A stretch of 64,000 bases of DNA from Candidatus Omnitrophota bacterium (GTDB lineage: Bacteria; Omnitrophota; Gorgyraeia; Gygaellales; Profunditerraquicolaceae). The stretch spans positions 154,584-218,583 of the forward strand of contig JAQURX010000001.1 of assembly GCA_028715415.1 (NCBI GenBank). Reading direction: 5' to 3'. A program made the translations under genes and the position numbers. Below are positions 31,419 to 63,438 of this stretch, piece after piece. The notes beneath the pieces are model-generated. The model saw nothing but the letters and a program-made list of their open reading frames with translations, was not told where the DNA came from and made no database searches. Positions within the stretch are counted from its first letter, which is position 1; every line of letters starts with the position of its first letter.

Positions 31419-35373
<3,955 letters not shown>

Positions 35374-35382
35374 TTATTTTTT

Positions 35383-36867: not shown

Positions 36868-36877
36868 AATTAGAGGT

Positions 36878-45700: not shown

Positions 45701-48700
45701 TGCTCCATTAATTCCATCAGAATTCCAGGTTAGATCATAAGTAGAGCCAATATTTAAAATAGATACAGCTGCTCCGGTAGAGTTTAATTTTACAGCATTA
45801 ACTGTAAGATAAGGGTTCACATATTCAATAACTAAGTTATTTAATACAGGTTTTTCCTGGCCGTCAGAATACAGTATTGCTTTGTATTGAAGGTATCTGG
45901 TGTTATGCGCTTCTGTATGGGCTGAATTAATAATTGTATAATAATCCGGTAGCTTAGAGTATGCTGGGTTAACTGGGGTAGAGCCGGTTTGATCGGTATA
46001 GAAGGTTAAGTCTCCTCCGAGAGTTACACTAGCTGAAGCTAATCTTGGAGTAGCTTTTCCGTCTCTAGAATGTAAAAATGCGCGGTAATAAAAATCTCCG
46101 GAATTAAAACCCGCAATATCTCGTTGGAATACGGTTAATCTTGCAGGAGTGATTTCTGTGGCGAGATTGGCTTGGGCATATCCGCCAGTTGTGGCTAATT
46201 GCCAAGCTGCCCCTGTCCAGTAATACCACTGCCATCCGTCGCGGGAAATCTGGTATTTAATTTCAAGTTCATCGCCTGTTCCCGAAGGTATGTCTTTTAC
46301 CGGATTAAACGAATCAATCTTGACTCCCTTATTTAAGTTGAAATCATAATTGTAGTATACGCCCATTACCGGTTGAATGCATGGGTTATCAGTGGAATAT
46401 CCATAGTTAACATTTGAGTAGTCTTGTTCGCTCATATAGGTTAAAGATTGGATTATGTCTGTAGCAGTTCCAAAGTTATAATTACTTCTGACTTCCTCTT
46501 GTGTTAAAGCTCTGTTATAAAAACGAACTTCATCAAGCCTTCCGTTTAAATAGCCCCACGAACTGCCAAAAGTATTACCAGAAGTGTAGCCGTTAGCAAA
46601 GCCCAGGCCTAGAGGAGCATTAGTATTTAATGCGTATTTTGCTCCAGATCTTGAATTAACCAGTCTGCCGTCTAAATACATTTTAGAATTGCGTTGGAAA
46701 GCCTGGGCTGTGTTTCCGTTATAAATCACTGACAAATGGTGCCAAGTGTTTAAGGAAGGCAAAGTTGTGCTAATCGTGTATTCAGTGCCATCTTTACAAC
46801 CTAAGTAGAAATATAAATAGCCATATGCGCTTCTTACAAAGAATCCCCAGTATCTGCCGTTTAAGTCGTTATAATAATCGGCTTTTCCAATTAGAACTCC
46901 CGGTTTATTGCTTTTTAACAAGAACCATAAATCAACTGTAAAGTCTGTGTTAAAGTTTTGTTCACTGTTTGGAGGAGATACTATTGAACCGAAGTTATCT
47001 GCTTGGGGTATTGAGCCATACGTATTGATTCCATTAAGGTTTAAACAGTTGCCAACCTTGCCCGGCAGCCATGAGCCATTTACTATTCCTTCGGTTGAGC
47101 CGGTGTATATTTTACCGTTATTTAGAGTATCTTCAGAAGAATCTTTTACTAATGTTGAATTCCCCTGTCCGTCTTCAAAAGACCAATATCCAATTAAATT
47201 AGTAGCATTAATAAAGTTATTCAATGAAAAATTAGGTGAAGCAGCGCTAAGGTTACCATAATAAAGATATATTCGTTGTGTATTCTTAAAAGAAAGCAAA
47301 TAAGGTATTTTGAGATAGAAAGAAGCGGTTTTATTTACGGAATCAAAACTGATAACCTTATATTTAAGTTCTTGATATCCGTCAGAAAATCTTAAGTCTG
47401 CTCCATCCGGGCGAGCCTGATTATTAGTAACGCGTTGCCAAAAAGTCGGATTGCTTGAAAGGTCCATTTTCACTAATCCTACCCAATCTTTTCTATCCTG
47501 TAAACATGAATATGAGATTTCAATCGGTTGCCTGTATGACCAGCCGCTGGTAAATAAGGAAATCTGATTAGAGTTTGTATCTACTGTGGAAGTAGGGTTT
47601 GGTGAAACATATTTATGGAATTCTTTGTGAGCTTGAATTTCAATTTGAGTTAAGGCTTTATCGTAAAGCCGAACTTCATCCATTATACCGTTAAAACAGA
47701 GGTTGCCCGCCGTATCTGCGCTTAGCCAGAAATTGGTACTATTTGAAATATCTCCTAATGGGTTGCTGCCGCTTACTAAATTAAATGCAGCTCCGTTTGG
47801 CAAGCCATCAACGAAAAATCTTCCTGTATTAGTGCTGCCATCTCTTGTGATTACCAATGCGATGTGATGCATATTGCCATCATTTATGTTGTTTGGGCCG
47901 ATAGATGAGATTATATTAGTTCCGTCATACATTTTAAGTGCGGGCCTACCTTGTTCAACACCAAATACAAATCCTTTGGTTGAATCGTATTTTCTTGCAA
48001 TTGTTCCATATAATGCAGAGGTTTGGATCCAAGCTTCAAGGCTAAAGCTTTGGTTAAAATCAAAGTCTTCCCAATCGCGGTTTAGAATTGTTCCATACCC
48101 TTCGCAATCAACATATTGATTTATCCCATTAAAGCTTAAGGCTTTTCCAATTTTTCCCGTAACCCAAGGAGAGTTATTATATAATCTTCCAGAATTCTTC
48201 CCTGTTACATCTATGATTGTATTTCCCGCACCTTCTTCAAAATCCCAATAAGCAATTAAATTAGCGCTATCTTTGTGAACATCCATTGTGCGGCTAAAGT
48301 TGCTTTCTGCGTCTATAATTTTATTTCCATAATACATTTTTATGTTGGTTATGCCTGTAGGCAGCGTCGGCATATTTACCCAGATTACTGCGTTATTGGA
48401 AGGGTGCCTATATCCTCCATATGTAAATGATTCAATGTAATATTCTAATCTTTCTCCGTTTGCATCAACAAACTTGATGTCATCTCCTTTGATCTGAGCG
48501 TAATCCCAGTAATTATACAAAGAACTGTTGATATTTACACGGACTTGATAACTATCCAGTTCATCTCCTGTATTATTTATCTGAATATTCTTCCAGTAAA
48601 AAGCAGGTTTTGTTATTACTGCTCCTCCAGTTGGGGCCAGATTGATGTTTTTGTCCATTGCATAGTCAACTACATTAGTAAAATCGTAATTAAATATTTG

Positions 48701-51700
48701 GCTGGTTAGTGATGGTCCTTTCCATTCTCCCCAGCTTATGCCATCAGTAGAAGATCTTAATTGGAATCTAACATCGGTTCCGGGCAATAAGCTTTCGCCC
48801 CAGTTTACCTTTAAGGCTCTGCTATTATCTGAGCCTAAGTTATAAGTGTTTGAAGTAATCTCTTGTTGGGCAACCGGGTATCGTGTGTAGTCTAGTTCAA
48901 GTTTGTGCAAGATTGGTACTTCGGTACTGTTGTTGCTGCTAAAGTTGAATTTATATTGGACGTATTTATCTTTTGATTTTGCAGAAGCAGCGCTATTTAT
49001 ATTAGCTGTATATTTAGTCATGCCATCAACTACTTGGGGTGCCGAAATCTGCCTAAGGTCTATAGTTTTACTCCAGGCAGTCGCGTTACTCATGTTAGAT
49101 TTATCGCTTGTCCTTATGGATGGGCTTATTGATTGCAGGCCATTTGTAAACCATCTAAATTGCCCCCAGTCCGCATGTTTTCCAATTTCTTTTACGCTTG
49201 ATATATAATCACCAAATGAAAAGGCGTATAGTTTTAAGAAATCATATCTGCTTTGCCCTCTTAATGCATAGAAATATTTTCCTCCAGGGCAGGCCAGGGT
49301 TCCGGGAGCTTTTATTCCAACCGGTAAATTAGAGAATTCTGACCAGGTATTATTCACGAAATCGTATCTTAATACAACAGAAGAAGAATAATCTTGGTTA
49401 TAGTTTGTGCCTTGTAAGACATAAAAGTAATTTCCAAATCCCGGATAAATTAATTTACTGTTGTTATTATAAAATACCGCAGGAGCAAGTGCGAATTCTC
49501 CCCAGGCAGCGGGCCCGGCAAGATTATCTTTTGTAGTGTCAAATTTATATATCGTTGGAGAATTTGCGCCTCGCATTACCCATATGTAATTACCAGAGCC
49601 CGGATAAACCATACTAGCTCCCCAGCCTATTGTATCTGGGGTTGTGCTAAATAATGTCTGCCAGCTGTCATTTATCAAGTTGTATTTTAATACCGTTGTA
49701 TTACCGCTGGGCAATGCATAAATAGAGTCGTCTTTCCATACTAAGGAAGCGCCATAACTCCATGATACCGGAGAAGATCTTTTGCTTTCCCATGTATTAT
49801 CTGCTATTGAATAACGGTAAAAACCAGTTGAACTGACTCCTTGTGCAACATATATATAAGCGTTTCCTTGGAATTCTGCTATTGTCATAACAGGTGACCA
49901 GTTGCTTAAGTCAAAATTCGGGGTTTCCAAATTATCCCATATATCCGTTTCTGTATTATAGCGTAAAAGTTTTGTTCCCGAGCCTGTATAGTTTAATACA
50001 AAGACGTATCCTTTGTAACCAATTGCAGCGCTTCTGTAGCTTAATAGTTCTGGAATCCCTTGAGGTTCGTTCCATTTGTTATCATTTGGAGAATAGCAGT
50101 AAAAACGGTCATATTGAGGATTGTAAACATAAAGCATTTCTTTTGTTCCTCCCTGTCCGTCATCTACTGTTGCTGATACGATTGAATGGGCTGAACCATT
50201 AGAGTCAGTATTGTTAAAGGGTAGTTTAGCTATGTTTTCCCATTGTTTTGAAGTGTCTGCTTCATTAAAGTTATAACGCATTAAATAAGACGCAGGGTCT
50301 CTTGGGATACAATAAAGATATCGTCCATCATCTGGCGATGTTGAGTAAAAGAGAACTGCGCCAGTGTTTGCTACCACAGCTTCATTGTCTACGGAAATCA
50401 TACTCTGGGAAGAAATGTTTGAAGTTGGGTTAGGCATACTCATTTCAAAGAAATTTGTGTCAGTTTTATCTGGGTTAACGAAGAAGAGCCTTGGTAAACC
50501 ATCTTTGTTAAGGCCATATGTTAAAACATTGCTTCTGTAGAAATTTTGAGTAAAAGGTAAGGTCATGATTTCAGACCAGTTTCCGGAAACAGTATCAAAT
50601 TCGTAGAATTTATTTCTATTTGTTTTAAAGTTGCCCACTCCGGCAAAGAACAATGATTTTCTTTCGGGGCAATATATAATTTGAGTTCCAAGGGCAAAAG
50701 TTTCCGGGCAGCTGTTTGCAGTAAGGCTCCATGTTTTAGTGTTTAAATTATATTTATATAATTTATTTGTGATCCTGCCTCCAGTTGCATAGATTGTGCC
50801 TAAATCTCCTTGTGTACTGCTTGGTACATACTCTATTTTGGAGCCATTAATTTTAAAAGGAGTGCGGATAATATCTGCCCAGCGCCCCTTAGCAACAGAA
50901 TACACCCAAATTATATCTGTAAGAGTATTAGTTGCGTAAGGGCCATAACAAACATAAATATTTTTTTGGCTATCAATTGCTGTATTCCCCGTGCGATATC
51001 CTCCCATAGGTGTATAATCCATTAATGGGTCGCTCCATGCAGAAGCGAATAGATCACCGGAATTTACAAAATCAAAATCAAACTTATAGAATGATGGGTC
51101 TGGGTATGGAAGTGTATACAAACCTTTGTAATCACCTGTTGCTACATGGCAAAGTCCCATGCGATATTGGGAAAATGGAGTAGCCCCGGCAGAGGTCTTG
51201 ATTAGTTCGTTCCATGTTCCTTGAATGTCCCCAAGAGAGCCGGCTTCCAGGCAATATCTAGCCCAGGTAAAGCCGTGTTGTTCGTCGGCATGTCCGGAGA
51301 AAGCATAGATGTATTTTCCTTTGGTTCCTAAATCAACGTAGGTTAAACTGTTTCCTCCTGAGTAACAGGCCAAATAAACCGGAGAATCTGCCAATCTCTC
51401 CCAAGTATTAGTGGTAATGTCATATCTATAGAGTATGTAACTATCTCCATTTGTAGCGTAAATATATTGTCCACTACCCGGGTAAACTAAGTTTGTCCCC
51501 GGGGTAAAATACGGCCAAGTTGTTGGAGGGCTCGCCGGTGCTAAGTTAACCCATCCATTAGTAGTATCAAAGCGATAAAAGTCTCTTGTTCGGGAATTAG
51601 AGCTCCATTGAGTGCTCCAGTTTGTACCTCGGGTTGCATATATATAAGGAATATCCATATTTGGTGTGCCTACAGATGCAGGAACGCCAACAATACAAGA

Positions 51701-53341
51701 ACCCGCTTCTTCATAAAATATATCAGGATCTATGCCATCGCTTGCAGAATAATTAGGCCTTTGTGCTTCAGGAAAATTGGCTAAAGTATTCCATACGTCA
51801 GATCCCGGTGTTTGTCCGATTGCATAACGATAAAAACCATTTGAACTATTTCCCGGGAAAAGATAAATATAATCAGTGTTGTTATCTCTTAAATAAGCCA
51901 TTTTATTGCCTGATTCGGCTACTGTAGCAGGAGTAGAGGCCAAATTTTCCCATTTATTATTAGACAGGCTGTAGCGATAAAATTTACGTTGATTTCCGGA
52001 TGGGGCATAATAAATATAGTCGCCAAAACCCGGGTAAAACATGTTTAGGTTTCTTGAATCTGTTTTATATGGTGGCGCGCAGAGCGTATTCCATCTACCC
52101 GTTGCAGTATTAAAACTCCATGGTTTTATATAGTTATAACCGGAAAAGAAAAAAGCATCTCCTGTTGAGTCGGATTGATTTGAGGTATCCGCATAGTACA
52201 TGATTGCTTTATAATTGCTTTTATCTGCAGGAAGCTCTGGAAGCTGTTCCCAATCAGCAGAGCTGTTTGTGTAATCCAGCCTGTAGAAGGTTCTGTAATT
52301 CGTGACATTGTAATCATAACCACCGTCCCCTCTGAGGGTAGCAGTTCTATAGGCGCTGTTAACATAGATATATTTTCCTCTGCCGGGATAATAGAAACCA
52401 GAGTAGCTTGATATTACGTTGTCAAAAGTGTTATTTTGATAAGGCAGCGTCTTTCCTGTTCCCCATGAGTTATCTACTAAATTAAATTTATATATAGATT
52501 TATTTGCGTTTCCTGGAGTGCAGTAAATATACTGGCTTCCTTGAGGATATAATAATGTTCCTCCGTAATTTACATTAAGATCAAGTGAGGTTGAGGTGGA
52601 CCAGTTAGTGCCTCCTACTGAGAGGTCGTATTTCATAAATTTAATGGTTTCTCCACCTATAGTTGCAAATAGCTTAGGAGTGGGATTGAATTGGTTTTGT
52701 TCAACATAAACAATACTCGCCCCCCAGCCGGCAGGCGCTAATAATTTTGCTAACAATACCCACTCGCCTAAGGGGTGTTCGCCATTTGGTAGTGTATAGG
52801 TATATGTTTCAAATGTACCACCTCCGCGGATGGCAAAAATTTTAGTTCCATCAGTGGCCATACTTACTCCAAGCCCCGCAGCAGCTGGTAAAGGCTCAAG
52901 CATCTCCCATTTCCCGTTAACAATATTGTATCTGCCAAAGTATCTACCATCACTTTCTCCGAATATGCAATATACGTATTCGTTAAGTTTTACATAAGCT
53001 GAATACAGCCCCGGTTGAGGTAAAGAATGAAGTGCTGACCAGTCTCCAAGATTCGTAAATGCATCTTTAGTCTCAATTTTAAGCTTTAAACCGGTTGCGC
53101 CATTCTTTTCAACGTTATTAAGAGTTCCATTAAAATCAGCAGAGCTCGTATCGGTTTTAGTAAATGTGTCAGCTAAAAGGGAAACATTGTTTCCTGTTGA
53201 GATATTGCTGGTTTTAGAAGAATAGCTTCCAGCAGGCCAGGATGATTGTGTTACAGTGGCAGCTTTGACATCTGAGAAAATACCGATTTGGCCAAAAATC
53301 AAAGCTTCTGCAAGAATTATTCTTAAGATTTTATTGAACAT
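39800..53341 (-). CDS. Giant secreted multidomain protein (4,513 aa): signal peptide, about 25 Kelch-like beta-propeller blades, 2 LamG/ConA-like domains, about 16 tandem Ig-like beta-sandwich repeats, coiled-coil C-terminus
   Basis: Single uninterrupted ORF with RBS GGAGG. Signal peptide MFNKILRIILAEALIFGQIGIFSDVKA. Recurring xYIYaxxGxxxxxFYRYdxxxNtW blade pattern. LamG signatures (AYWDFEEG...MDEVRLYDKALT and GYWSFEDG...LDEVRFYNRALT). Repeats ending ...s(F/Y)(T/D)W(T/M)VP.DA. Confidence 0.9.
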   Translation of the reverse strand: MFNKILRIILAEALIFGQIGIFSDVKAATVTQSSWPAGSYSSKTSNISTGNNVSLLADTFTKTDTSSADFNGTLNNVEKNGATGLKLKIETKDAFTNLGDWSALHSLPQPGLYSAYVKLNEYVYCIFGESDGRYFGRYNIVNGKWEMLEPLPAAAGLGVSMATDGTKIFAIRGGGTFETYTYTLPNGEHPLGEWVLLAKLLAPAGWGASIVYVEQNQFNPTPKLFATIGGETIKFMKYDLSVGGTNWSTSTSLDLNVNYGGTLLYPQGSQYIYCTPGNANKSIYKFNLVDNSWGTGKTLPYQNNTFDNVISSYSGFYYPGRGKYIYVNSAYRTATLRGDGGYDYNVTNYRTFYRLDYTNSSADWEQLPELPADKSNYKAIMYYADTSNQSDSTGDAFFFSGYNYIKPWSFNTATGRWNTLCAPPYKTDSRNLNMFYPGFGDYIYYAPSGNQRKFYRYSLSNNKWENLASTPATVAESGNKMAYLRDNNTDYIYLFPGNSSNGFYRYAIGQTPGSDVWNTLANFPEAQRPNYSASDGIDPDIFYEEAGSCIVGVPASVGTPNMDIPYIYATRGTNWSTQWSSNSRTRDFYRFDTTNGWVNLAPASPPTTWPYFTPGTNLVYPGSGQYIYATNGDSYILYRYDITTNTWERLADSPVYLACYSGGNSLTYVDLGTKGKYIYAFSGHADEQHGFTWARYCLEAGSLGDIQGTWNELIKTSAGATPFSQYRMGLCHVATGDYKGLYTLPYPDPSFYKFDFDFVNSGDLFASAWSDPLMDYTPMGGYRTGNTAIDSQKNIYVCYGPYATNTLTDIIWVYSVAKGRWADIIRTPFKINGSKIEYVPSSTQGDLGTIYATGGRITNKLYKYNLNTKTWSLTANSCPETFALGTQIIYCPERKSLFFAGVGNFKTNRNKFYEFDTVSGNWSEIMTLPFTQNFYRSNVLTYGLNKDGLPRLFFVNPDKTDTNFFEMSMPNPTSNISSQSMISVDNEAVVANTGAVLFYSTSPDDGRYLYCIPRDPASYLMRYNFNEADTSKQWENIAKLPFNNTDSNGSAHSIVSATVDDGQGGTKEMLYVYNPQYDRFYCYSPNDNKWNEPQGIPELLSYRSAAIGYKGYVFVLNYTGSGTKLLRYNTETDIWDNLETPNFDLSNWSPVMTIAEFQGNAYIYVAQGVSSTGFYRYSIADNTWESKRSSPVSWSYGASLVWKDDSIYALPSGNTTVLKYNLINDSWQTLFSTTPDTIGWGASMVYPGSGNYIWVMRGANSPTIYKFDTTKDNLAGPAAWGEFALAPAVFYNNNSKLIYPGFGNYFYVLQGTNYNQDYSSSVVLRYDFVNNTWSEFSNLPVGIKAPGTLACPGGKYFYALRGQSRYDFLKLYAFSFGDYISSVKEIGKHADWGQFRWFTNGLQSISPSIRTSDKSNMSNATAWSKTIDLRQISAPQVVDGMTKYTANINSAASAKSKDKYVQYKFNFSSNNSTEVPILHKLELDYTRYPVAQQEITSNTYNLGSDNSRALKVNWGESLLPGTDVRFQLRSSTDGISWGEWKGPSLTSQIFNYDFTNVVDYAMDKNINLAPTGGAVITKPAFYWKNIQINNTGDELDSYQVRVNINSSLYNYWDYAQIKGDDIKFVDANGERLEYYIESFTYGGYRHPSNNAVIWVNMPTLPTGITNIKMYYGNKIIDAESNFSRTMDVHKDSANLIAYWDFEEGAGNTIIDVTGKNSGRLYNNSPWVTGKIGKALSFNGINQYVDCEGYGTILNRDWEDFDFNQSFSLEAWIQTSALYGTIARKYDSTKGFVFGVEQGRPALKMYDGTNIISSIGPNNINDGNMHHIALVITRDGSTNTGRFFVDGLPNGAAFNLVSGSNPLGDISNSTNFWLSADTAGNLCFNGIMDEVRLYDKALTQIEIQAHKEFHKYVSPNPTSTVDTNSNQISLFTSGWSYRQPIEISYSCLQDRKDWVGLVKMDLSSNPTFWQRVTNNQARPDGADLRFSDGYQELKYKVISFDSVNKTASFYLKIPYLLSFKNTQRIYLYYGNLSAASPNFSLNNFINATNLIGYWSFEDGQGNSTLVKDSSEDTLNNGKIYTGSTEGIVNGSWLPGKVGNCLNLNGINTYGSIPQADNFGSIVSPPNSEQNFNTDFTVDLWFLLKSNKPGVLIGKADYYNDLNGRYWGFFVRSAYGYLYFYLGCKDGTEYTISTTLPSLNTWHHLSVIYNGNTAQAFQRNSKMYLDGRLVNSRSGAKYALNTNAPLGLGFANGYTSGNTFGSSWGYLNGRLDEVRFYNRALTQEEVRSNYNFGTATDIIQSLTYMSEQDYSNVNYGYSTDNPCIQPVMGVYYNYDFNLNKGVKIDSFNPVKDIPSGTGDELEIKYQISRDGWQWYYWTGAAWQLATTGGYAQANLATEITPARLTVFQRDIAGFNSGDFYYRAFLHSRDGKATPRLASASVTLGGDLTFYTDQTGSTPVNPAYSKLPDYYTIINSAHTEAHNTRYLQYKAILYSDGQEKPVLNNLVIEYVNPYLTVNAVKLNSTGAAVSILNIGSTYDLTWNSDGINGATNTVKIQLHRLDKNDYYTIAENAPNNGLLTWTVPSDATTIPLILSEQSRIRITSNDFDHIVADSPTDLRVLSLKLTSPINGDIWEAGKENFILWDVYGLPPLPPGKEIHPLSIYYRYKNAQNVFSTWTFIGANLDAASGNKSWAIPATISNECQIKIFSPVDAGKYWDSVGATIIDTLNGSFAIVPAPNITVTLPQGLTAIRAGEPLVINWATNQKMFGPNVTLKYLKYNAAEETSYGDITPTPIPIGTVGPTPNSSTIGSYTWTVPLDAIPPRIDLPVRVQVIGTALSNRVAQNGARTIESNPCTGESIDFYVNKPTISISSPSPFITKWVKGDTNIIEWSTSGTISNYLKIDYSIDSTNGINGTWTTIDSDVSNVERKYTWTNIPLEAVGENVWLRITDEGENGSTTTLQGKPQTSVGPFEILNLPKLNIISPPDQTDGATLTMGKIYEIKWETFGNNFIKIGGTPGPDYSGKTYIYYSTAGENGPWTCPLAAIDNTGSTYLQIPTTQTFNAYIKVEIKDSPTSTPKVSGLSGKLSFGTPHIALQVPNGTETWYAHGTHNIVWRNIGAIKNDSLEFYYSTNGGAAGSWIKITNLNNGDIVKVDEVGYSQCTLPWQVPRDIVPEGQNSLQQVKLKIVDTSWLPEDVSDPSNSNFTITKPTITIVSPTTNDSWVVGTTGHPISWQTTGGAQKAIKKLVFEWRNRTNNEFTAIHNPITSSSILDTDQGSFDWMVPTDALPNDPDDQNDKATIRIYDPIADGGSGASKEINFRVGKPVLVFIKPNPDAASETLYMGDTYTIQWTTAGYIPDGVVLTYTDGTNWHNIDTGGPLNSEGSFDWTVGDTYSPGTAYIVIKRPIELPSIPTEYKRESKLFSILYPVITVSRIDGNQPWTVTETRTINWTSLGKLRGPFIVQWSKDNFITSQTINPPVPYDPGHPEYWGPTTTSINWTLPLEAQGLVKVRVNDIYWGLGAGTNYKVFGDTEQPFIVLPKPQLFIDSPNHVQRGTNCLRIGKQYPILWHDNGGVTHNDLRIQYSVNGGPYEDILNKDGSPVALHLSNTGTFLWDIQKNTIPSNNCKILITDNVKWKSDEPNAFGETSNEEIFEIGIPLINLTYPSGTGVYWAVGEKPTITWTTEGYINPDSIALQYTVDTSATPPDGSFTSIAFGLPNDNVAGMGSYTWAGPGGTGIPDLFSLLGRQGQPEIPIQLIAKDGLSNYGPLNLKVKSELKSVIILPKPALELIAPLGTEAKTEYEVGEILPIQWRTKGLSLNKVRLSYFESDTPAITYPIATIDCAPNQTNSFSWTIPNDVLISRKIRIKVTMIDQNNNERADITASSTNDIRFKGAFVITNLDTEAQKRKIVGKTETFTWTTKGSISQVIFEYFNGTSWDNTKTVTINNTGATAGQCNMTIPEPRSEHCRFKITNANDPTVFIESPEFKADYYHITWDVVDYDTHGHLDELGVKEDQTGWLVDITNINAVLLSSPQTRDYPAGNYITRWSKKGYIARAADWRADGDTIQTVLLENEISAQVEWHVLLSTSYNPATDTLRASTWLERRGKLMGPSDSDSDTIKQQILNDLKSATLEIYDNGTLVKTLSTTEPGMGSLYYRDNKGIFWFNWQATGLATGKHYFVKAIINYSAGQYTSGASIDISQAVEQAQQTSQLTSLQQSATTIETKVDDIADKVGKAKKSIEDKIDTQVASVKSDTSQILSTTTSTIVPAVQTIQKEVTTIKKSEILNRDNTIRSTKDLVIRFRSYTGVQPTIQVYDAENKLVLTGNMKPITSSSTSEVAIYEFPVLFDGGWGKGDFTIVCSEATYGTVDAMIISVIKADLEQIAGNVASVMGATSSISTLRDVADNLKTQFSLIETALSQLGKSLVKDVKDAAASANVLDSIYSQLKSVSKEIKQISGDAGVNLEKLYQVTAEKKNDIDYLKNKSQELKATLELNKKMVDNIANKPVTQTWYEYK

Positions 53342-53390: not shown

Positions 53391-54398
53391 TTATTTATTT
53401 GGCACATTAAGTTTTTCCTCAAGCTGTTTTGTTTTTTCTTTTTCAATCGCAAGCCTTCTTTGCATGGCTTCCAAAGAAACTTTATCAGCGCGGTATTTCT
53501 CATCCAAATTCTTTATTATAACTGAGTTTTCATGTGCTAGTTTAAGGTTAATTTCACCTTGTTTCTTAAGCATCTCTTTTTGAAGATTTCTTTTAAGATT
53601 AAAAGTGACTTGAGAAAAGTATACAGATATAAAGATCAGTGCTATTACTGATAAAGCCCCAGTAACAAGAAAGAACCTTTTTTTTCTTTTAAATTCCGCA
53701 TCAGGTATAGAGCTATCAATTTCAGATTTATATTTTTCAACTTCAAGTTCAACTTTTTCTATAAAACCGTTTGTGCCAAGTACTGTCTTTTTATTGAGCT
53801 CTTTATTAATAAAACCACTTCTATCTAAAGAAAATTCTTTGATAAATTCTTGATGATCTTTATTTTTTAGATATTTTTTAGTTTCTTCAATTTCACTTGA
53901 GATATTAATGTCTAAACTTGGTTTACCTAAATAATTAGCGAAACTACAATAAGGATAAAGTTCCGGCTCTTTAACAATATTTAGGATTTTAGGATTAAGA
54001 TGAATATAGGAAGCAACCTCTAAAAGATGAGTTTCTTTTTCAACTAAAACCAGTTTAAACCTTTCTTGGAAAAGATGGCCTTTTCTTTCATATTTTGAAT
54101 TGAAATATTTTGTATAGTTTGCATTTAGGTCATGCATAATATCAGAAATTGTTAGTCCAGCTTTTAATTCAATCAATAAATGTAGATGGCTTGGGATCAG
54201 GCAGAAGGCGAATAATTTAAAACCATATTGTTCTTTATATTTCTTTAATAATTCAGCGTAGGTTTTATAATCTTGGACATCTCTAAAAATTTCTTCATTA
54301 TTATCACCGCGGCTTGTTACGTAGTATAGTGCGCCTTCAATAAATTTTTTAGGGACTTTAATCATTTTAAGCCACCTTTTCTTTTTAATGCGTTGCAT
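53391..54398 (-). CDS. IS200/RAYT-like Y1 HuH transposase-domain protein fused to a TM helix and C-terminal coiled coil
   Basis: N-terminal ~140 aa with Y1 motifs (YYVTSRG...FAFCLIPSHLHLLIEL and catalytic-Tyr region GHLFQERF...VASYIHLNPK). Then TM FFLVTGALSVIALIFISVYF and a coiled coil. Confidence 0.6.
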   Translation of the reverse strand: MQRIKKKRWLKMIKVPKKFIEGALYYVTSRGDNNEEIFRDVQDYKTYAELLKKYKEQYGFKLFAFCLIPSHLHLLIELKAGLTISDIMHDLNANYTKYFNSKYERKGHLFQERFKLVLVEKETHLLEVASYIHLNPKILNIVKEPELYPYCSFANYLGKPSLDINISSEIEETKKYLKNKDHQEFIKEFSLDRSGFINKELNKKTVLGTNGFIEKVELEVEKYKSEIDSSIPDAEFKRKKRFFLVTGALSVIALIFISVYFSQVTFNLKRNLQKEMLKKQGEINLKLAHENSVIIKNLDEKYRADKVSLEAMQRRLAIEKEKTKQLEEKLNVPNK

Positions 54399-54444
54399 TT
54401 TTATTGCAACGTTGGTTTATTGCGTGGTACTTTGCAATAATTTT

Positions 54445-54475
54445 AAAAAAAAATCCCAGGCATTTTACCTGGGAT
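54445..54475 (-). terminator. Intrinsic terminator forming the expression platform of the c-di-GMP riboswitch
   Basis: On the minus strand: AATCCCAGG-UAAAAUG-CCUGGGAUU followed by U9. Lies between the aptamer and the start codon at 54398. Confidence 0.75.
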
Positions 54476-54495
54476 TGGTTGTCTTAAGTTTCAAT

Positions 54496-54583
54496 CTTCG
54501 GTAATCTGCCTGTCCCGGAATTTTCCCGGGATGCACGACTTTGCGTCCCTTGATTACTCAAGGTTTGCCTTTTCGGATAAAGA
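54496..54583 (-). promoter_or_regulatory. Cyclic-di-GMP-I (GEMM) riboswitch aptamer
   Basis: Minus-strand RNA CCGAAAAGGCAAACC-UUGAGUAAUCAA-GGGACGCAAAGUC...CCCGGGAAAAUUCCGGGA-CAGGCAGAUUACCGAAG. Carries the two GEMM-I signature blocks (GGCAAACC and GGGACGCAAAG) flanking a GNRA-loop P2 hairpin, a P3 hairpin and the 3' UUACCGA.G element, as in V. cholerae Vc2. Confidence 0.8.
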
Positions 54584-54601
54584 GCATTAATTTCTACATT
54601 A

Positions 54602-54630
54602 AGTATACCATACGCTTGATTTCTTTTCAA
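54602..54630 (-). promoter_or_regulatory. Sigma-70-type promoter for the riboswitch-led transcript
   Basis: Minus strand TTGAAA-17 bp-TATACT, ~15 bp upstream of the aptamer. Confidence 0.55.
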
Positions 54631-54659
54631 GGTGCGTGGCATTTTATCTTTTTGAGGGG

Positions 54660-54986
54660 TTAATTTGCTTTTTTTTGTTGTATGATTTTAGCTTTTTCTG
54701 TTAGCTCTTCCATACGTTTTTTTTCAATTTCCAGCTCTTTATATGTATTTTCTAAAGAAGGTTTACTATTATTGTATTTTTCCGATAATTTCTTGGTTAA
54801 GATCTCTTTTTCTTGATTAAGCGCTACTTTGAAGTCATTCTCTATTATTAAGCTAGCTGACTTGATTTCCACCTTGATACGCGCCATTTCAATAACAAAA
54901 ATAGCTACAATTATTAGAAATACAACGAATAAAATCAGATAAAAATAGTGCAGAAACTTTAGCTTTGGCATATTTAGATTGGACAT
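54660..54986 (-). CDS. Small TM plus coiled-coil protein, paralogous to the C-terminal module of the 53391..54398 fusion
   Basis: TM helix. LSEKYNNSKPSLE...LEIEKKRMEELTEKA aligns with LDEKYRADKVSLE...LAIEKEKTKQLEEKL of the Y1 fusion protein. Confidence 0.4.
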   Translation of the reverse strand: MSNLNMPKLKFLHYFYLILFVVFLIIVAIFVIEMARIKVEIKSASLIIENDFKVALNQEKEILTKKLSEKYNNSKPSLENTYKELEIEKKRMEELTEKAKIIQQKKAN

Positions 54987-55017: not shown

Positions 55018-55746
55018 TTAGTTGGATTTTATAATGCTTATCGTGTTCTTTACTTCTTCTGCATCATCCGCATCCGGCTTTAATTCAAGGTATTTCTCGT
55101 AATTAAAAACAGCGTTCGCGTTGTCTGTTTTTATGTCTTTGTAAAGAACAGCTAAGTTGTAATAAGCATCAGCGTTCTTTTCATCAAAAGTAAGAGATTT
55201 CCGGTATTCTTCAATAGCCTCATCATTCATCCCAGCTTTTGAATAGCTTATAGCTAGATTGTAATGGAATAAAGCTCTTTCTTTTTTTAGCGTAGTTTCA
55301 AGGTCTTTTAATTTGTTTTCAAGCGATTTCTTTTCATCAGATAATTTTCTCTGAAGCACAGCCTGGTCTTTGGTTAACTTTTTTTCATCTTGAGCTAACT
55401 GAGTTTTTTGCCGTTCTAATTCAGCTTCTTTATTTTCTAAAACTTTTTGGGCATCATCCAATTTTTTTTGCAGAGCTTCCTTTTCTTTTTGAAAATCGTT
55501 ATTTAATTTTACATAATTTAATGTGTCGGCTTGCAGTTTCTCGTTTTCTTTTGTGGTAGCCTCTTTTTCAGTTTCAACGCGCTGTTTTTCTTCGTTAACT
55601 TTTACAAGAAGTTGTTTTGTTTGATCTAATTGCCCTTTGAGTGATTTACTATTTAAGAGTAATGCTATGCTTGAGGCAATGGCAATAATGCTTAGCCCAA
55701 TTAGAGAAAAAATGAATGGTTTCGTGCGGATTAATTTATCAAACAT
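55018..55746 (-). CDS. Membrane-anchored coiled-coil/TPR protein
   Basis: N-terminal TM helix, ~130 aa coiled coil and C-terminal TPRs (AISYSKAGMNDEAIEEYRKSL...AYYNLAVLYKD). Confidence 0.5.
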   Translation of the reverse strand: MFDKLIRTKPFIFSLIGLSIIAIASSIALLLNSKSLKGQLDQTKQLLVKVNEEKQRVETEKEATTKENEKLQADTLNYVKLNNDFQKEKEALQKKLDDAQKVLENKEAELERQKTQLAQDEKKLTKDQAVLQRKLSDEKKSLENKLKDLETTLKKERALFHYNLAISYSKAGMNDEAIEEYRKSLTFDEKNADAYYNLAVLYKDIKTDNANAVFNYEKYLELKPDADDAEEVKNTISIIKSN

Positions 55747-56411
55747 TATTTTATTCTTTCTAGTTCTTTAATTCTTTGTTTTGCTTGTTCTGCTCTTGTC
55801 CCTTTGGGTGATATTCCAAGAGATTGCTTGTAATAATTAATAGCTTTGGTTCTTTCATTTTTGTCTATTGAACAGATCATTCCTAGTAAATAAGAGCTTT
55901 CAGCGTCATCAGGAACGTATTGTAAGGCTTCTTCAAAAGCTTTTTTAGCTTGGTCAAAATTGACCGCAAGGGTTTCGCTCAGTCCAAGGTTATAATAAAG
56001 CAGGTTTAAAGTAGCCTTGTCATTCTTTAACTCTTTAGCTTTTGATATTCTTTCCTTAAGTAGCCGGTTAGCTTTAGCCACTTGATCTTTAAGGATATAT
56101 TGCCACTCTAAATAATTAGCTACTCTTCTTTTTATTTGGTAGCTTTCTTCAAACAGTTTCTGCTCAATAGATTGAGATTTTATCAATGAATTTACTTGGT
56201 TTTGCAGAATGGAAGCGGAATTTTTTAGTTTTTGATTTTGTATAAATACGCTAATAAAAAGCATGCTAGATATTGCCAAAGCGACCCAGCTAATTACAAA
56301 TAAAACTAAAATTATTGTAAGCACTTTTTTGGAGTTTTTCTTCTCTGCCATATAAATTCTCCTTAAATATTTACCTGAATGGCTCTTGTAATATAGGATT
56401 GCTTGATTCAA
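55746..56411 (-). CDS. Membrane-anchored TPR protein
   Basis: TM helix then TPR repeats (YYNLGLSE...AKKAFEEALQYVPDD, YLLGMICS...AINYYKQSL). Confidence 0.5.
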   Translation of the reverse strand: MNQAILYYKSHSGKYLRRIYMAEKKNSKKVLTIILVLFVISWVALAISSMLFISVFIQNQKLKNSASILQNQVNSLIKSQSIEQKLFEESYQIKRRVANYLEWQYILKDQVAKANRLLKERISKAKELKNDKATLNLLYYNLGLSETLAVNFDQAKKAFEEALQYVPDDAESSYLLGMICSIDKNERTKAINYYKQSLGISPKGTRAEQAKQRIKELERIK

Positions 56412-57174
56412 GCATATTTATCAGGTATTCAATGTCTTTCCTGTTAGGTGCATCAGGCTTAATCCATAAGTATTGTTTAAAATGATAGATCGCTTTAGAG
56501 TTGTTATTTAGTGAATGTTTGTATAATAATCCTAAATCGTAGTGGACTTGCGCGTTTTTACGGTTGATTTTTAATGATTTAGTGTAGGCGGTTATTGCAT
56601 CTTCATAGAGTTTAGCTTGAACATAAGCAGTCCCTAATTTTTCATATAATTGAGCCATTTCAAGGTCTCTTTTGTTAGATAATGTATAAACTTTATCTTG
56701 TAACTTTTCTATTGATTCTTTTGACTTTTCTCTTTCTTTCTCTAGAGTTTTCTTTAAAATCAGCCGTTCGTCATTCATATTTTTGGAAAGTTTCTCAAAA
56801 TTAGTCAGTTCCGCCTGCTTTTGCTTAAGTTCATCGGTTTTTAGGTTCAATTCTTTGATTATCTCCTCAAGTTGATTCCTTAAGCGTTCTTCATTTGTTT
56901 GTATTGATTTAATTTTGCTTTCCGCTTTTATACCAGGATTATCAACTTTTACCTGAGTTGGTTGTTGCGGTAGTTTGTTTTCTTTTACGGATATTTTAAC
57001 TTTATCTTTATTCTTATCTTTTATAACATCATTTATAAGGTTGATGGTATCTTTTTGGGATACGGGATTAATCTGTTGAGATTCTTTGGCTTGGGCAAAA
57101 GCAACTCTTTGAAGTCCTAAGGCTATCAATATTGCTAATATTGTGACCCAGGCTTTCTTTTCGTTTTCTCTCAT
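56371..57174 (-). CDS. Secreted/periplasmic coiled-coil/TPR protein
   Basis: Signal peptide, coiled coil and TPRs (LYEKLGTAYVQAKLYEDAITAYTKSL...VHYDLGLLYKH). Confidence 0.5.
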   Translation of the reverse strand: MRENEKKAWVTILAILIALGLQRVAFAQAKESQQINPVSQKDTINLINDVIKDKNKDKVKISVKENKLPQQPTQVKVDNPGIKAESKIKSIQTNEERLRNQLEEIIKELNLKTDELKQKQAELTNFEKLSKNMNDERLILKKTLEKEREKSKESIEKLQDKVYTLSNKRDLEMAQLYEKLGTAYVQAKLYEDAITAYTKSLKINRKNAQVHYDLGLLYKHSLNNNSKAIYHFKQYLWIKPDAPNRKDIEYLINMLESSNPILQEPFR

Positions 57175-57188
57175 TTTCCCTTTCCTTA

Positions 57189-59108
57189 TTAAAATTCTTT
57201 AATTCCTTTAAGTTTCTCTTGCACTTCAGTTTGTTTCGTATCCGGTTTAATTGAACTACCGGAAGTTTTTGGAGTTTGCAATGCTTCTAAGACGGCCTCT
57301 TCTTTCTTTGGCGACATCTTAATTTCTCCAACCTTTCTTTCAATAATATCCTCTTTAGTATCTTCTGCGACGATATCATAGGGAATCATTCTTTCAGGTT
57401 CGGTGCCTTGGAATAAATTCTCTCCGGAGATTAGATGTGGAGTAAGAAATACTATTAATTCTGTTCTCTTTTTTTGCTGGGCGTCAGAGCCAAAAGCAGC
57501 TCCAATAAGCGGTATTTTTGAAAACCACGGAAGTCCTACCCTATCTCTTCTGCTTTCATTTTTCATTAAGCCTGCAATCATAATCATGGTACCGTCTTTT
57601 ACTTTTACTACAGTTTCAGCTTCAGAAGTTTCTACGATTGGGATAGTGCTTTTTAGCGCAGTAGTAATTGTTTCCCTGACTGAACTGACTTCGGGTTTGA
57701 TTTTCATTGTAATATAGCCATCTTTATTAATCGTAGGAACAACGCTCAATTTAACACCGACGTCTATGAATTGGACGTTTTCTGAGGTGATTGTAGTAAC
57801 GTCAGATTGGCTTTGGGATTGTGAAATATAGGCTTCGCGGGAGCCAACCATAATTTTTGCCTCTTGGTTATTAATTGCAGCAATGCGGGGCCTGGAAAGT
57901 ATTTTTGTGGCTCCTATTGTATTAAGGAATTGCAGTGTGGTTGTGAATCTGTCTGCGGCAAGCGTTCCGAAAGTAAAGGTATAATTTGCAGCTGTTAATA
58001 ATGGCGAAGGTGTAAATGAAGGCGAAGCAGGAAGCGTACCTTTTAAGTCAATGCCGTGTATATTTTTATCTTGAATTAGTTTTTCCCAGCTGATTCCTCT
58101 TTGGTATTCATCTTTTAAGGTGATTTGCACGATTTCCGCTTCAATAAATACCTGTCGGGATTCTTCATCAATAGCCTTAACCATGCGCTTTAATTTCTTC
58201 ATTTTATCCGGCAGGTCACTAATGATAAGTTTTCCTGAGCGTTCATCAACAAAAACTTCACCCGGGCCGGTAGTTATTGCGCTTGCTATTTGAGTTTTTA
58301 TATCAGCGGGTTTTGCGTATTTAATATCAAATATTTCGGTTTGAGGAGATCGATCCAGGTCTTTGACAGTTTTCTCCATCTGATCTAATTTTTCTGGGAT
58401 ATCCAACATAATTATTGTGCCGGTTGCTTCGTCAACGATAATCTTACCAATGTCAGATTTAATTTGGCCAAGCGCATTAAATATGGTTGCCGGCTTTGCA
58501 AAATTCAATTTAAGGCTTCTGTATTTTCTTTTTTCATTGTATTTTTTTCCATATAGTCGTTCGTATTCGGAGGAAGTCATTATGTTTATTATTTCATTAT
58601 TTCTATCCGCGGCTAAATCTTGGCTTACTAAGACTACGTCAAGAGCGTCTTCAAAAGAAAGGTTATTTAAGAAGATGTTTACTCTCCCAGCGACACTCTT
58701 AGTTGGGACAATTGTGACTCCCATTTTTAAAGAAAGAATCCTAAAAAGCTCGTTGATATCAATCCCTTTTAAGTCAAGAGAGAGTCTTTCTTCTCCATCA
58801 ACTTTTACGCCTTTTGTAATTTCTTCTTCTGAAGCGACTTTGGTAGTACTAGAAGAAGAAATTGGCAGCAAAGCTGGATTTGTTGAAGGGTTATCAGTAG
58901 GATCCCTGGTGTCTTTTTGTTGTTCACTCGTTTGAGGAATTGGAGAGTTGTTGGGGAGAGGTGTATTTGCTGTAGGATTGCTTGGTTGCTGTGTACTGCC
59001 AGATTGAGCCTGTTGTGCATTATCCTGAGTAAAAGCATTTTTTAAAGAAATTAAGCCCAGTAATAAAATGAAAATTAATACAGTAGTTTTTTTATTAAAT
59101 AAGTTCAT
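57189..59108 (-). CDS. gspD: Secretin (GspD/PilQ family) with N-terminal Ser/Pro/Thr-rich linker and a ~90-aa C-terminal extension
   Basis: Signal peptide, N0/N1-like domains and the secretin core (LSRPRIAAINNQEAKI..., VVKVKDGTMIMIAGL, PLIGAAFGS). Confidence 0.85.
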   Translation of the reverse strand: MNLFNKKTTVLIFILLLGLISLKNAFTQDNAQQAQSGSTQQPSNPTANTPLPNNSPIPQTSEQQKDTRDPTDNPSTNPALLPISSSSTTKVASEEEITKGVKVDGEERLSLDLKGIDINELFRILSLKMGVTIVPTKSVAGRVNIFLNNLSFEDALDVVLVSQDLAADRNNEIINIMTSSEYERLYGKKYNEKRKYRSLKLNFAKPATIFNALGQIKSDIGKIIVDEATGTIIMLDIPEKLDQMEKTVKDLDRSPQTEIFDIKYAKPADIKTQIASAITTGPGEVFVDERSGKLIISDLPDKMKKLKRMVKAIDEESRQVFIEAEIVQITLKDEYQRGISWEKLIQDKNIHGIDLKGTLPASPSFTPSPLLTAANYTFTFGTLAADRFTTTLQFLNTIGATKILSRPRIAAINNQEAKIMVGSREAYISQSQSQSDVTTITSENVQFIDVGVKLSVVPTINKDGYITMKIKPEVSSVRETITTALKSTIPIVETSEAETVVKVKDGTMIMIAGLMKNESRRDRVGLPWFSKIPLIGAAFGSDAQQKKRTELIVFLTPHLISGENLFQGTEPERMIPYDIVAEDTKEDIIERKVGEIKMSPKKEEAVLEALQTPKTSGSSIKPDTKQTEVQEKLKGIKEF

Positions 59109-59112
59109 ATGT

Positions 59113-59760
59113 TTATCTTAACTCCCATTCTAACTGGTCTTTTCCTAAAATAACCTTTTCCTTAAGAATCTTTTTTATAAAAAGTTGCTTAAGCTGGTCT
59201 CCTGTGCTTAAAAGGTATGTTTTTTGGTCTTTAGAATCTTCAATCATTGCTTGAGGTTTATCTGACCAAAGAATTCCTACCAATTTAAGGCTACTTACTA
59301 TTTCTCCCATTTCAGGAGCAATTTTTGGAGGAGTGCCTACAGGAGCAGAAGGCGTATAAGTAAAAATGTTGTGTTTTTTTGCCAAGGCAATCGTGTCTGT
59401 TATGTTTGCTTCTTGTTTTTTAAGCATATCATCTTTTGTTTCGTAAATCGCTGCTTCTGCTTTTACTTGCTCAAGCCTCTTTTTTGAATTCGCCCCAAGC
59501 TTTATGAAATCCAGAATAAAGAATATTGTCAGGATACCGCAGAAAACAATAATTATCTTATTCGCAGTCCTTAAGTTAATAAATTGAGATAGGTTTTTGT
59601 TGCCTTGAAGCGTTTTTAATCCGGCAACAAAGTCTTTTAAGTTAAATTGTTTCTTTGCTCGTTCAGGTGGCACCTCCATGTTCTTTTCTGTCGATTGAGG
59701 ATTTTCAATTATTTTTAAAAGTTTTTCTTCGGGTGTTGAATTGTCTTTTTCTATTGGCAT
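59113..59760 (-). CDS. GspC/PilP-like inner-membrane secretin-associated protein (putative)
   Basis: Cytoplasmic N-terminus, one TM helix and a periplasmic beta-rich C-terminal domain. Immediately upstream of the secretin gene. Confidence 0.4.
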   Translation of the reverse strand: MPIEKDNSTPEEKLLKIIENPQSTEKNMEVPPERAKKQFNLKDFVAGLKTLQGNKNLSQFINLRTANKIIIVFCGILTIFFILDFIKLGANSKKRLEQVKAEAAIYETKDDMLKKQEANITDTIALAKKHNIFTYTPSAPVGTPPKIAPEMGEIVSSLKLVGILWSDKPQAMIEDSKDQKTYLLSTGDQLKQLFIKKILKEKVILGKDQLEWELR

Positions 59761-59763
59761 TTT

Positions 59764-60594: not shown

Positions 60595-60790
60595 CTTTTG
60601 AAGAAGAAACCTTTATTTGGGTAAGATTTATTTTATGTCGCATTCTCTTTATTCGTAAAGTATTACGACACTTCTAAACTTGAATTAATTATAGTAAAAA
60701 GAATCACAATTAGCAAGAAGTTTTATTAATAATTTAATTTATATTATATTCTATTTGTCGTTTACTAAATTAGTCTCTTGTTCTATAGTT

Positions 60791-60990
60791 TTTGCTTCAG
60801 GCACTGAATATTTTTGCCGTGCGCTGCGATTTACCACGTCGCTTCGGCTTAGCGTTCTCTTGGGAGCCGTCCTTCGCTCCTCGTAAATTCTTGCGCACTA
60901 ATGTTAATAGCTGTGCCAAAAATCTTCTAATGTGCCTTCAGCAAAAACTATAAAACAAACACAGCTTTTAAGTGAGAAACAAGACAAGGC
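60791..60990 (+). repeat. Intergenic repeat element copy B (compact copy)
   Basis: Same ordered conserved blocks as 3247..3633, without the two insertions. Confidence 0.6.
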
Positions 60991-63436: not shown

Positions 63437-63438
63437 TT

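Follow-up and report, generated by a model that had tools for sequence, protein, structure and literature searches.

A RAYT-like Y1 domain fused to a predicted membrane anchor behind a c-di-GMP riboswitch in Omnitrophota

This report concerns one gene and its leader in a 64,000-nucleotide stretch of DNA from a Candidatus Omnitrophota bacterium (GenBank assembly GCA_028715415.1, contig JAQURX010000001.1, positions 154,584 to 218,583 of the forward strand), referred to throughout as the window. The gene encodes a transposase-like Y1 (HuH) domain joined to a helical linker, a transmembrane (TM) helix and a long C-terminal helix; it is the first coding sequence downstream of a cyclic di-GMP (c-di-GMP) riboswitch, and a free-standing paralog of its TM-helix module is encoded upstream. 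It is a conserved host gene, not an insertion sequence (IS), and we think it reasonably probable that it represents a RAYT-like Y1 domain exapted into a single-pass inner-membrane protein, within a cassette that is phylum-wide in Omnitrophota. In the list of open reading frames (ORFs) every gene in this part of the window lies on the minus strand. The features at the heart of the locus are given here in the direction of transcription, with residues numbered according to the 324-amino-acid (aa) form of the fusion protein unless the 335-aa ORF is named.

54660..54986, minus strand: free-standing TM-helix paralog, a 108-aa ORF (103 aa at NCBI), identified by BLASTP and hhalign
54633..54642, minus strand: motif copy A, ATGCCACGCA, 2 nt upstream of the -35 hexamer
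54602..54630, minus strand: sigma-70-like promoter TTGAAA-17-TATACT (with TG), the top promoter-like site of the region (10/12)
54495..54581, minus strand: c-di-GMP-I riboswitch aptamer (Rfam RF01051; own covariance model R1, 99.5 bits)
54441..54476, minus strand: intrinsic terminator AAUCCCAGG-UAAAAUG-CCUGGGAUU plus U9 (terminator scan, 11 pairs and a T-run)
54421..54430, minus strand: motif copy B, GTACCACGCA, between the terminator and the Shine-Dalgarno (SD) sequence
53391..54365, minus strand: Y1(HuH)-linker-TM-helix fusion coding sequence, 324 aa plus stop, identical to the 324-aa NCBI protein P0001
53946..54365, minus strand: RAYT-like Y1 HuH domain, residues 1-140 (Pfam, NCBIfam, PDB sequence and fold matches)
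53712..53945, minus strand: helical linker domain, residues 141-218 (helices 142-218 in an AlphaFold2, AF2, model; predicted local distance difference test, pLDDT, ~90)
53607..53675, minus strand: single TM helix, residues 231-253, FFLVTGALSVIALIFISVYF... (Kyte-Doolittle scan)
53406..53606, minus strand: charged C-terminal long helix, residues 254-320, probably periplasmic (continuous helix in the AF2 model)

The original prediction, made from the letters of the window, had taken the fusion protein to span 53391..54398, and the ORF does extend 5' to an ATG at 54398 to give 335 aa. The true start is, however, probably M12 of that ORF (ATG 54365), because the SD sequence AAGGTGG at 54372-54378 lies 6 nt ahead of this ATG and the NCBI protein is 324 aa long.

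The proposal that the N-terminal ~140 residues carry the hallmarks of a Y1 HuH domain is borne out by sequence and fold alike. Pfam Y1_Tnp (PF01797) matches residues 35-133 of the 335-aa ORF (E=4.4e-15), and the NCBIfam model REP_Tyr_transpos (NF047646) is matched over its whole profile at 77.4 bits (E=1e-21), just below its cut-off of 80; the transpos_IS200 model reaches 21 bits against a cut-off of 55. The sole PDB sequence match is E. coli TnpA_REP (4ER8), in which H59, H61, Y115 and N119 align with H60, H62, Y120 and N124 of the fusion protein; in TnpA_REP, Y115 is catalytic and N119 is a metal ligand (PMC3479197). The codons for H60-L-H62 lie at 54180-54188 (-), and that for Y120 of YIHLNP at 54006-54008 (-). 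The AF2 model of the fusion protein, computed from 38 homologs (pLDDT 90.8), comprises globular residues 1-218 followed by a single uninterrupted helix, 222-319. A Foldseek search with this model places 4er8_A (TnpA_REP) at the top (E=1.5e-8, TM-score 0.71), with the ISDra2, IS608 and IS200 transposases as runners-up. The linker bears a YPYSS-type serine motif and an LGSxxF motif (G197, F201).

The fusion protein has 3258 database homologs, the best 120 of which are 285-388 aa long, share 39-52% identity with it, nearly all at a query coverage of at least 94%, and come from Omnitrophota where a source is named, mostly one per contig. No frameshift is involved: over 100 homologs have the fusion as one ORF of equal length. 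When one genome per species was scanned, 75 loci were recovered, ~70 of them in Omnitrophota, and the proteins fall into two size classes, ~305-350 aa (subfamily 1, that of the window) and ~380-450 aa (subfamily 2). The TM helix placed after the Y1 domain by the original prediction is a family trait, since a hydrophobic segment corresponding to 231-253 is present in 120/120 close homologs, at residues ~225-265 in nearly all genome loci (Kyte-Doolittle). Beyond it the long helix, with the signature DLDEKYRADxVSxEAMxxRLxIEK, continues for ~70 aa, not for the ~110 aa first proposed. As a side observation, ordinary soluble RAYT-like ORFs adjoin the membrane-anchored form at L006:8867-9439(+) and L007:9078-9767(-), one of 190 aa with HFH and YIIANP, the other a 229-aa Y1_Tnp protein.

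The 108-aa ORF, the last gene of the secretin/TPR operon that precedes the leader, had been called a homolog of the C-terminal module, and this claim proves sound. BLASTP aligns it with residues 231-318 (242-329 of the 335-aa ORF) at 30% identity and E=9e-8. Because TM and helical sequences can match on composition alone, we added a profile-profile test: hhalign of a small-ORF profile, built from the equivalent ORFs of eight orthologous loci (L001, L003, L005, L006, L008, L009, L012 and L020), with the C-terminal modules of the 120 homologs gave 99.7% and E=3.4e-25 over 96 columns. The small protein at L009 repeats the signature of the fusion protein nearly verbatim (DLDEKYRADLVSFEAMHKRLEIEK). 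A word-indexed homolog search with the 108-aa protein recovered only itself. The module profile, run against 1.84 billion (1.84e9) representatives, matched 261 proteins, and the best 150 of these 261 are either free-standing proteins of ~76-133 aa or the C-termini of ~290-349-aa proteins, together with about ten matches of 151-271 aa that carry the module C-terminally and are probably fusion ORFs broken off at contig ends. Because the profile matches are confined to those two architectures, the TM-helix module is a specific family and not a generic coiled coil. The helical C-terminus of the giant protein encoded downstream was also considered as a homolog of the module and was rejected, there being no long proteins in the best 150 of the 261 matches.

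The pairing of a fused module with a free-standing one recurs in subfamily 2 with a different module. We refer to the free-standing module as X and to its fused counterpart as X'. In subfamily 2 the part beyond the TM helix is a globular 'WETMQ' domain, which matches no Pfam family and shares 33-34% identity (E 6e-14 to 1e-23) with a signal-peptide protein encoded directly upstream of the riboswitch, as in these three pairs:

L027:10001-11305, subfamily-2 fusion, with L027:8952-9557, free-standing paralog
L044:8479-9747, subfamily-2 fusion, with L044:7490-8176, free-standing paralog
L062:10001-11206, subfamily-2 fusion, with L062:9102-9674, free-standing paralog

Both subfamilies therefore consist of module X, a riboswitch, a Y1-TM-X' gene and then a downstream gene, whose product begins like a signal peptide in 19 of 22 cases (judged by eye). 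Since the two subfamilies repeat the same design, we think an X-X' interaction is probably central to function. The free-standing X homologs of subfamily 2 carry signal peptides, so the most likely topology has the Y1 domain in the cytoplasm and the C-terminal helix, X', in the periplasm. Small signal-peptide proteins (125-180 aa) follow at subfamily-2 loci.

Upstream of the fusion gene, the promoter ends 20 nt before the aptamer and would start the riboswitch transcript; its layout, TTGAMA-17-TATACT, recurs in orthologous loci. The Rfam RF01051 match covers 54497..54579(-) at 66.1 bits against a gathering score of 35, in agreement with the original placement of the fusion gene as the first coding sequence under a c-di-GMP riboswitch. 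Seven aptamers verified by Rfam went into covariance model R1, and in 64 of the 77 loci that could be assessed this model detects an aptamer on the strand of the gene, 79-435 nt ahead of it (median 132). Rfam itself places a riboswitch directly upstream of the fusion gene in five of the six loci examined (at the sixth, L007, a match lies 3.9 kb downstream) and upstream in 7/7 loci tested from the more distant subfamily, and orthologous leaders score 54-65 bits. Several aptamers at L006, L007, L027, L039 and L044 score best with c-di-GMP-I-GGC (RF03167; 59-63 bits, threshold 59), and ligand specificity may accordingly differ between lineages.

Of 22 leaders examined, 19 have a terminator-like hairpin and U-run behind the aptamer, in most of them with a stem of the UCCCAGG/CCUGGGA type, and we take this terminator as the putative expression platform of the riboswitch. 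In the minimum-energy fold of the window leader the 3' strand of aptamer helix P2 pairs with the loop and 3' arm of the terminator, which hints that c-di-GMP is an OFF signal. Over the terminator window, the bracket string departs from that of the isolated hairpin fold in 14 of 19 orthologous leaders, many of which keep or extend the hairpin; with the orthologous leaders inconsistent, such folding would not fix the ON/OFF direction of the switch. At L045:4670-5071 we observe a decayed aptamer, of which only AGGGCAAAC is left, with the terminator and a GTGCCAGGCAC motif kept upstream of a Y1-TM gene that is followed by an ORF of more than 3195 aa.

The order of genes is also conserved. In five of the six contexts examined (L001, L003, L005, L006 and L008) it is that of the window: ExeA/MshM-like AAA ATPase, GspC-like protein, secretin, TPR proteins, small TM protein, a gap, the fusion gene and then a giant gene, here of 4085-5233 aa. 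The gap holds a c-di-GMP-I-clan Rfam match in 5/5 of these same-order loci. The suspected linkage to giant genes held in part: they follow only about half of subfamily-1 members, so that the link is real but not defining, and the near-universal partner is instead the riboswitch.

The catalytic residues have followed another course. The window protein keeps the full H-L-H plus Tyr triad, as do 106 of the 120 close homologs (88%), and H60, H62 or Y120 is altered in the other 14 (12%). Two of these 14, P0080 (Y to H) and P0068 (H60E), retain both riboswitch and giant gene. At the level of species representatives, 15/21 in subfamily 1 and 14/43 in subfamily 2 have an intact triad; the other 6/21 (29%) and 29/43 (67%), respectively, have lost it and keep the same cassette, with varied replacements (R-x-E...Q, Q-x-D, S-x-S, H-x-H...H and others). 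Other positions are strongly held: G96, H97, R102, H122, P125, G197 and F201 are conserved at 88-100%, with H97, R102, H122, G197 and F201 at 93% or above and G197 and F201 invariant in 71/71. A near-invariant block inside the Y1 domain, G96-H97-L-F-Q-E-R102, aligns with the W94-Q95...R segment through which TnpA_REP reads its tetranucleotide GTAG tag (PMC6006769). Because the triad is often lost in relatives with the same genomic context, binding is likelier than cleavage as the conserved activity; because the GHLFQER block is kept while the triad decays, nucleic-acid recognition, or some other surface, would be what is conserved, and not strand cleavage. We infer that catalysis is dispensable for the family, and the window's own protein, with its triad, may possess residual nuclease activity.

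A candidate for what such a domain could recognize lies in the leader itself. The motif RYRCCACGCA has 2 matches in 64 kb, against 0.27 expected; both lie in this leader on the strand of the gene, and there is no match elsewhere in the window. Copy A holds its position in 12 of 19 subfamily-1 leaders (the window and 18 other loci), and the subfamily-1 orthologs (L001-L024 leaders) have this arrangement too, and in them codons 3-6 often hold a third copy. The subfamily-2 equivalent, AAAGTGCCAGGCAC, stands after the terminator in 25 of 35 leaders (L026-L076), often in tandem, with 39 copies in subfamily-2 leaders against ~0.4 expected; enrichment of the motif in these leaders is ~100-fold. In general form it is an 11-nt quasi-palindrome, GTGCC-A/AC-GCAC (GTGC-CAS-GCAC / GTGCC-N-GGCAC), the window copies being 10-11 nt long. 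When 241 million metagenome records were scanned at the DNA level alone for terminator arm, U7 and motif, 21 loci were found, and the next ORF encoded a Y1 domain in 20/20 assessable cases (hmmsearch E 1e-13 to 1e-88). The Y1 domain itself may read the motif, as an operator or as a hairpin, and the forms GTGCCACGCAC and GTGCCAGGCAC are candidate targets of the cytoplasmic domain (residues 1-220). A separate idea, that the motif is a sigma-54 -24/-12 promoter, was rejected by inspection: TGGCAC occurs on one strand, and no TTGC lies at the right spacing.

The surrounding genes provide the wider setting.

39800..53341, minus strand: giant secreted-protein gene, 4513 aa (ORF list, Pfam)
55018..60594, minus strand: upstream co-directional operon (Pfam, NCBIfam), with the four entries below
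59764-60594, minus strand: ExeA/MshM-like AAA ATPase
59113-59760, minus strand: GspC-like protein
57189-59108, minus strand: secretin
55018-57174, minus strand: three TM-coiled-coil-TPR proteins

The giant ORF begins 49 nt after the stop codon of the fusion gene, with which it is probably co-transcribed, and its adhesin-like product has a signal-peptide-like N-terminus, Kelch propellers, DUF2341 and Laminin_G_3. Elsewhere in the window, directly downstream of F-type ATP synthase genes and on the same strand, lie genes for an MshE-like ATPase (T2SSE with a c-di-GMP-binding MshEN domain), T2SSF and a PilM-PilN fusion (28762-34492(-), 34489-37597(-)), and a PilZ protein is encoded at the window end (63074-63484(-)); given these MshEN and PilZ proteins, several c-di-GMP receptors surround the riboswitch operon. 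Adjacent LexA and Pol IV (IMS) genes form an SOS module, with a gene for a ComEA-like double HHH_3 protein nearby (23290-25377(-), 26397-27299(-)). A ~135-nt intergenic element occurs twice, 57.5 kb apart, at ~85-90% identity (3342-3475 and 60836-60975 (+)); one copy lies upstream of the AAA-ATPase/secretin operon, and the element has an internal inverted repeat (60778-60804 / 60932-60958). It matches no Rfam family; a small RNA, a regulatory region and a miniature inverted-repeat transposable element are all conceivable. The 3' end of a tRNA (15435-15465) is duplicated 66 nt downstream at 87% identity (within 15380-15531), and ACTTG-rich repeats (13953-13993, 15534-15603, 17994-18049) form 28-37-nt inverted repeats around an Alginate_exp porin gene (16474-17886); the arrangement looks like an integration scar or an insertion next to a tRNA.

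Overall, we believe these features are best read as pointing to an exapted bitopic protein, mostly non-catalytic, that would bind nucleic acid as a regulator or tether. The cassette would run, in order, from a sigma-70-type promoter through riboswitch and terminator, quasi-palindromic motif and Y1-linker-TM-X' gene to one or more secreted-protein genes, with free-standing X encoded just upstream. In the mechanism we envisage, the c-di-GMP level would control termination, and thereby transcription of both the fusion gene and the secreted-protein gene that follows it. The Y1 domain would then bind nucleic acid without strand transfer, reading GTGCC(A/AC)GCAC in its own leader as double-stranded DNA (dsDNA) or as a small hairpin of the non-template strand or of RNA, and the periplasmic helix would pair with the free-standing paralog, so that secreted-protein expression would be linked to the envelope. 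A role as a ToxR-like, membrane-tethered, operon-specific regulator or tether that reads this motif is possible, and by analogy we advance it tentatively. More doubtful is an extended version of that role, in which the HuH domain would read DNA or RNA on behalf of a novel class of regulators or tethers anchored in the membrane and made only upon riboswitch read-through. Such a protein might read GTGCC(A/AC)GCAC, possibly as a small non-template-strand hairpin in a paused elongation complex in the manner of RfaH and ops. It might thereby keep very long secreted-protein genes at the membrane, beside their secretion machine, or activate their transcription there, while the periplasmic module reports envelope state via the paralog.

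Several observations weigh against this interpretation. HuH domains are known to bind single-stranded DNA (ssDNA), not dsDNA or RNA. The motif is palindromic, adjoins the -35 box and resembles the 5' arm of the terminator, and it is also found at nearby riboswitches preceding other genes, with the central base sometimes inverted; an unrelated dimeric transcription factor could use it as an operator or, given that resemblance, it could belong to the riboswitch RNA platform, and the link between Y1 domain and motif is a candidate only. In the window protein and in most of subfamily 1 the full triad persists, apparently under purifying selection, and catalysis may still matter in this subfamily. 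The positive-inside rule is indecisive (K+R 3.7 versus 3.4 across the TM helix), and the heptad signal of the long helix is weak, with hydrophobic residues at 10 of 19 a/d positions, so that the coiled coil of the original prediction is plausible only.

The strongest rival, which we nevertheless regard as unlikely, assigns the protein a structural or assembly role in a secretin/type IV pilus-like machine of the MSHA or type II secretion system (T2SS) kind. The fusion protein and its partner would form a GspL/GspM- or PilN/PilO-like pair, and the Y1 domain would be a protein-docking platform, for example for the MshE-like ATPase, engaging no nucleic acid. The small paralog does end the AAA-GspC-like-secretin-TPR operon in the window and in five orthologous loci, T2SSE with MshEN, T2SSF and the PilM-PilN fusion are encoded in the window, the cytoplasmic-TM-periplasmic layout with a small bitopic paralogous partner mirrors GspL/GspM, and the loss of catalytic residues is tolerated. 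Yet subfamily 2 and about half of subfamily 1 have no adjacent secretin operon and lie near small secreted proteins, the block conserved across the family corresponds to the DNA-reading segment of TnpA_REP (PMC6006769), and the gene's own promoter, riboswitch and terminator separate it transcriptionally from the secretin operon.

Still less probable, in our estimate, is an active membrane-tethered ssDNA endonuclease. Such an enzyme could process ssDNA during DNA uptake through a secretin or pilus, as in a predatory or epibiotic cell, or it could carry out a programmed rearrangement of DNA, for example by cutting out the promoter, riboswitch and terminator that lie between copies A and B of the motif. 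The intact H60, H62, Y120 and N124 of the window protein, the triad of the 106 close homologs, the ComEA-like HHH_3 protein and secretin of the window, and the direct repeats of the motif that bracket the riboswitch all fit this idea; the loss of the triad from subfamily-1 and subfamily-2 representatives with the same cassette does not. Nor is there a clean A-B deletion among the loci without an aptamer, L045 keeping terminator and motif, and most subfamily-2 leaders lack copy A.

The genomic evidence for a host gene bears on a last rival. There is no TnpB in the 64-kb window, as originally noted, the neighbors of the fusion gene being the giant gene and the small TM protein; nor does the window hold a second copy of the fusion gene or, with scope limited to the window and not the rest of the genome, a REP (repetitive extragenic palindrome) family. 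The reported absence of flanking hairpins stands for IS200-like subterminal hairpins, which an inverted-repeat scan of the window did not find, but a quasi-palindromic motif is present twice in the 5' leader. Terminal inverted repeats (TIRs) of TIRYT type, GGGG[AT][CG]A[CG] (GGGGWSAS), match 3 times in 64 kb where 4.6 would be expected, and the closest match lies 4 kb away. In place of the Y---Q tyrosine motif of IS200/IS605 the protein has YIHLNP, of RAYT type, and it comprises 324 aa with a TM helix as against the core-only ~130-150 aa. With the fusion phylum-wide, the synteny conserved and no IS ends, the original view of a domesticated, membrane-tethered HuH protein rather than an active IS is upheld. 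An active or recent mobile element (IS200/IS605, RAYT/REPtron or TIRYT) lying by chance downstream of a riboswitch is thus very improbable: public databases name the homologs 'transposase' or 'REP element-mobilizing transposase RayT', and the Y1_Tnp domain has an intact triad, but orthologs at 40-52% identity occupy the same synteny across species, the hallmarks of mobility just listed are absent from the window, and no known IS transposase has a TM helix and periplasmic module (PMC6006769).

Where, then, did the family come from? Its relatives outside Omnitrophota (Nitrosomonas, another proteobacterium and a Thermoanaerobacterales metagenome-assembled genome) have no TM helix; the proteobacterial L079 and L082 share an LG(S/D)xxF linker, and L082, from Nitrosomonas, ends in a weak HTH_23/HTH_28 match. 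Subclass 2.1 of the TnpA_Y1 proteins, probably the same group as the TIRYTs described by De Nocera et al. 2013, has FQ, Y[IV]HLNP and SS motifs, no REP, and helix-turn-helix (HTH) tails (Quentin et al. 2018, PMC6006769); the C-terminal HTH is Bac_DnaA_C, HTH_23 or HTH_28, the taxa are epsilon-, beta- and delta-proteobacteria, and the word 'transmembrane' is absent from that paper. Because the non-TM relatives carry subclass 2.1 motifs and, in L082, a weak HTH match, the Omnitrophota proteins look like 2.1 relatives in which this DNA-binding tail has been replaced by a membrane anchor and periplasmic module. Pfam finds no HTH in the fusion protein, where TM segment and helix form the C-terminus. 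The family consensus reads PNHLHLL, HLFQER, YIHLNP and YPYSSY (SHLH and YCSF in the window). Shared with subclass 2.1 are an FQ in place of WQ/WE, Y[IV]HLNP, the serine motif that follows the Tyr helix, a C-terminus with a long extension and the lack of REPs; the HuH middle residue is L, in (N/S)HLH, versus Y/F/V in NH[YF]H / NHVH. Unlike subclass 2.1, the Omnitrophota family has a TM helix and extracytoplasmic module for the HTH, no TIRs and riboswitch control.

Comparison with characterized systems sharpens the picture. TnpA_REP/RAYT (YafM, 4ER8), with which the HuH, Tyr and Asn of YIxxNP align, is a single-copy domesticated Y1 protein, monomeric, that recognizes a short tag plus palindrome. 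It is, however, soluble, 165 aa long and flanked by genome-wide REPs and bacterial interspersed mosaic elements, whereas no GT[AG]G-tagged REPs were found here in 64 kb, and the fusion protein adds a 78-aa linker, TM helix and periplasmic helix, lies behind a riboswitch and often lacks the triad in its relatives. As a working analogy, ToxR/ToxS, TcpP/TcpH and CadC share the N-terminal cytoplasmic domain, single TM helix, periplasmic domain and small partner next door, and in both cases an operator, here a candidate one, adjoins the regulator's own or an adjacent promoter. The analogy has its limits, because an HuH/Y1 fold stands in place of an OmpR-type winged helix, the small partner is paralogous to the periplasmic module, and DNA binding is here a prediction. 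c-di-GMP-I (GEMM-I) riboswitches control adhesins and pili in Vibrio, Clostridioides and Geobacter. The Omnitrophota loci resemble these regulons in having a class I aptamer and terminator upstream of surface or adhesion genes, and differ from them in that the first gene encodes an exapted transposase-domain membrane protein. The searchable literature holds no report of a riboswitch-controlled transposase-domain membrane protein or of this family. Domesticated TnpA_Y1 proteins as such are already known, and what appears to be new is the architecture and the regulatory context.

Regardless of its precise role, the family is a clear case of prokaryotic transposase exaptation, with a RAYT-like Y1 domain fixed as a host membrane protein across a phylum while its catalytic residues decay in many lineages. 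The 'transposase' label can therefore mislead analyses of mobile DNA around the giant genes of Omnitrophota; one preprint of 2026 treats the transposases that flank giant genes as a sign of mobility. The giant-gene preprint describes T2SS-like loci upstream and PilZ genes downstream and mentions neither a transposase-like gene nor a riboswitch, and the searchable giant-gene literature makes no mention of a c-di-GMP control layer. The short conserved motif and the soluble 220-aa domain offer a tractable experimental target. For the organisms themselves, the cassette looks like a core regulon of c-di-GMP-I riboswitches in Omnitrophota, one that ties second-messenger control to giant and other secreted proteins thought to mediate attachment or predation.

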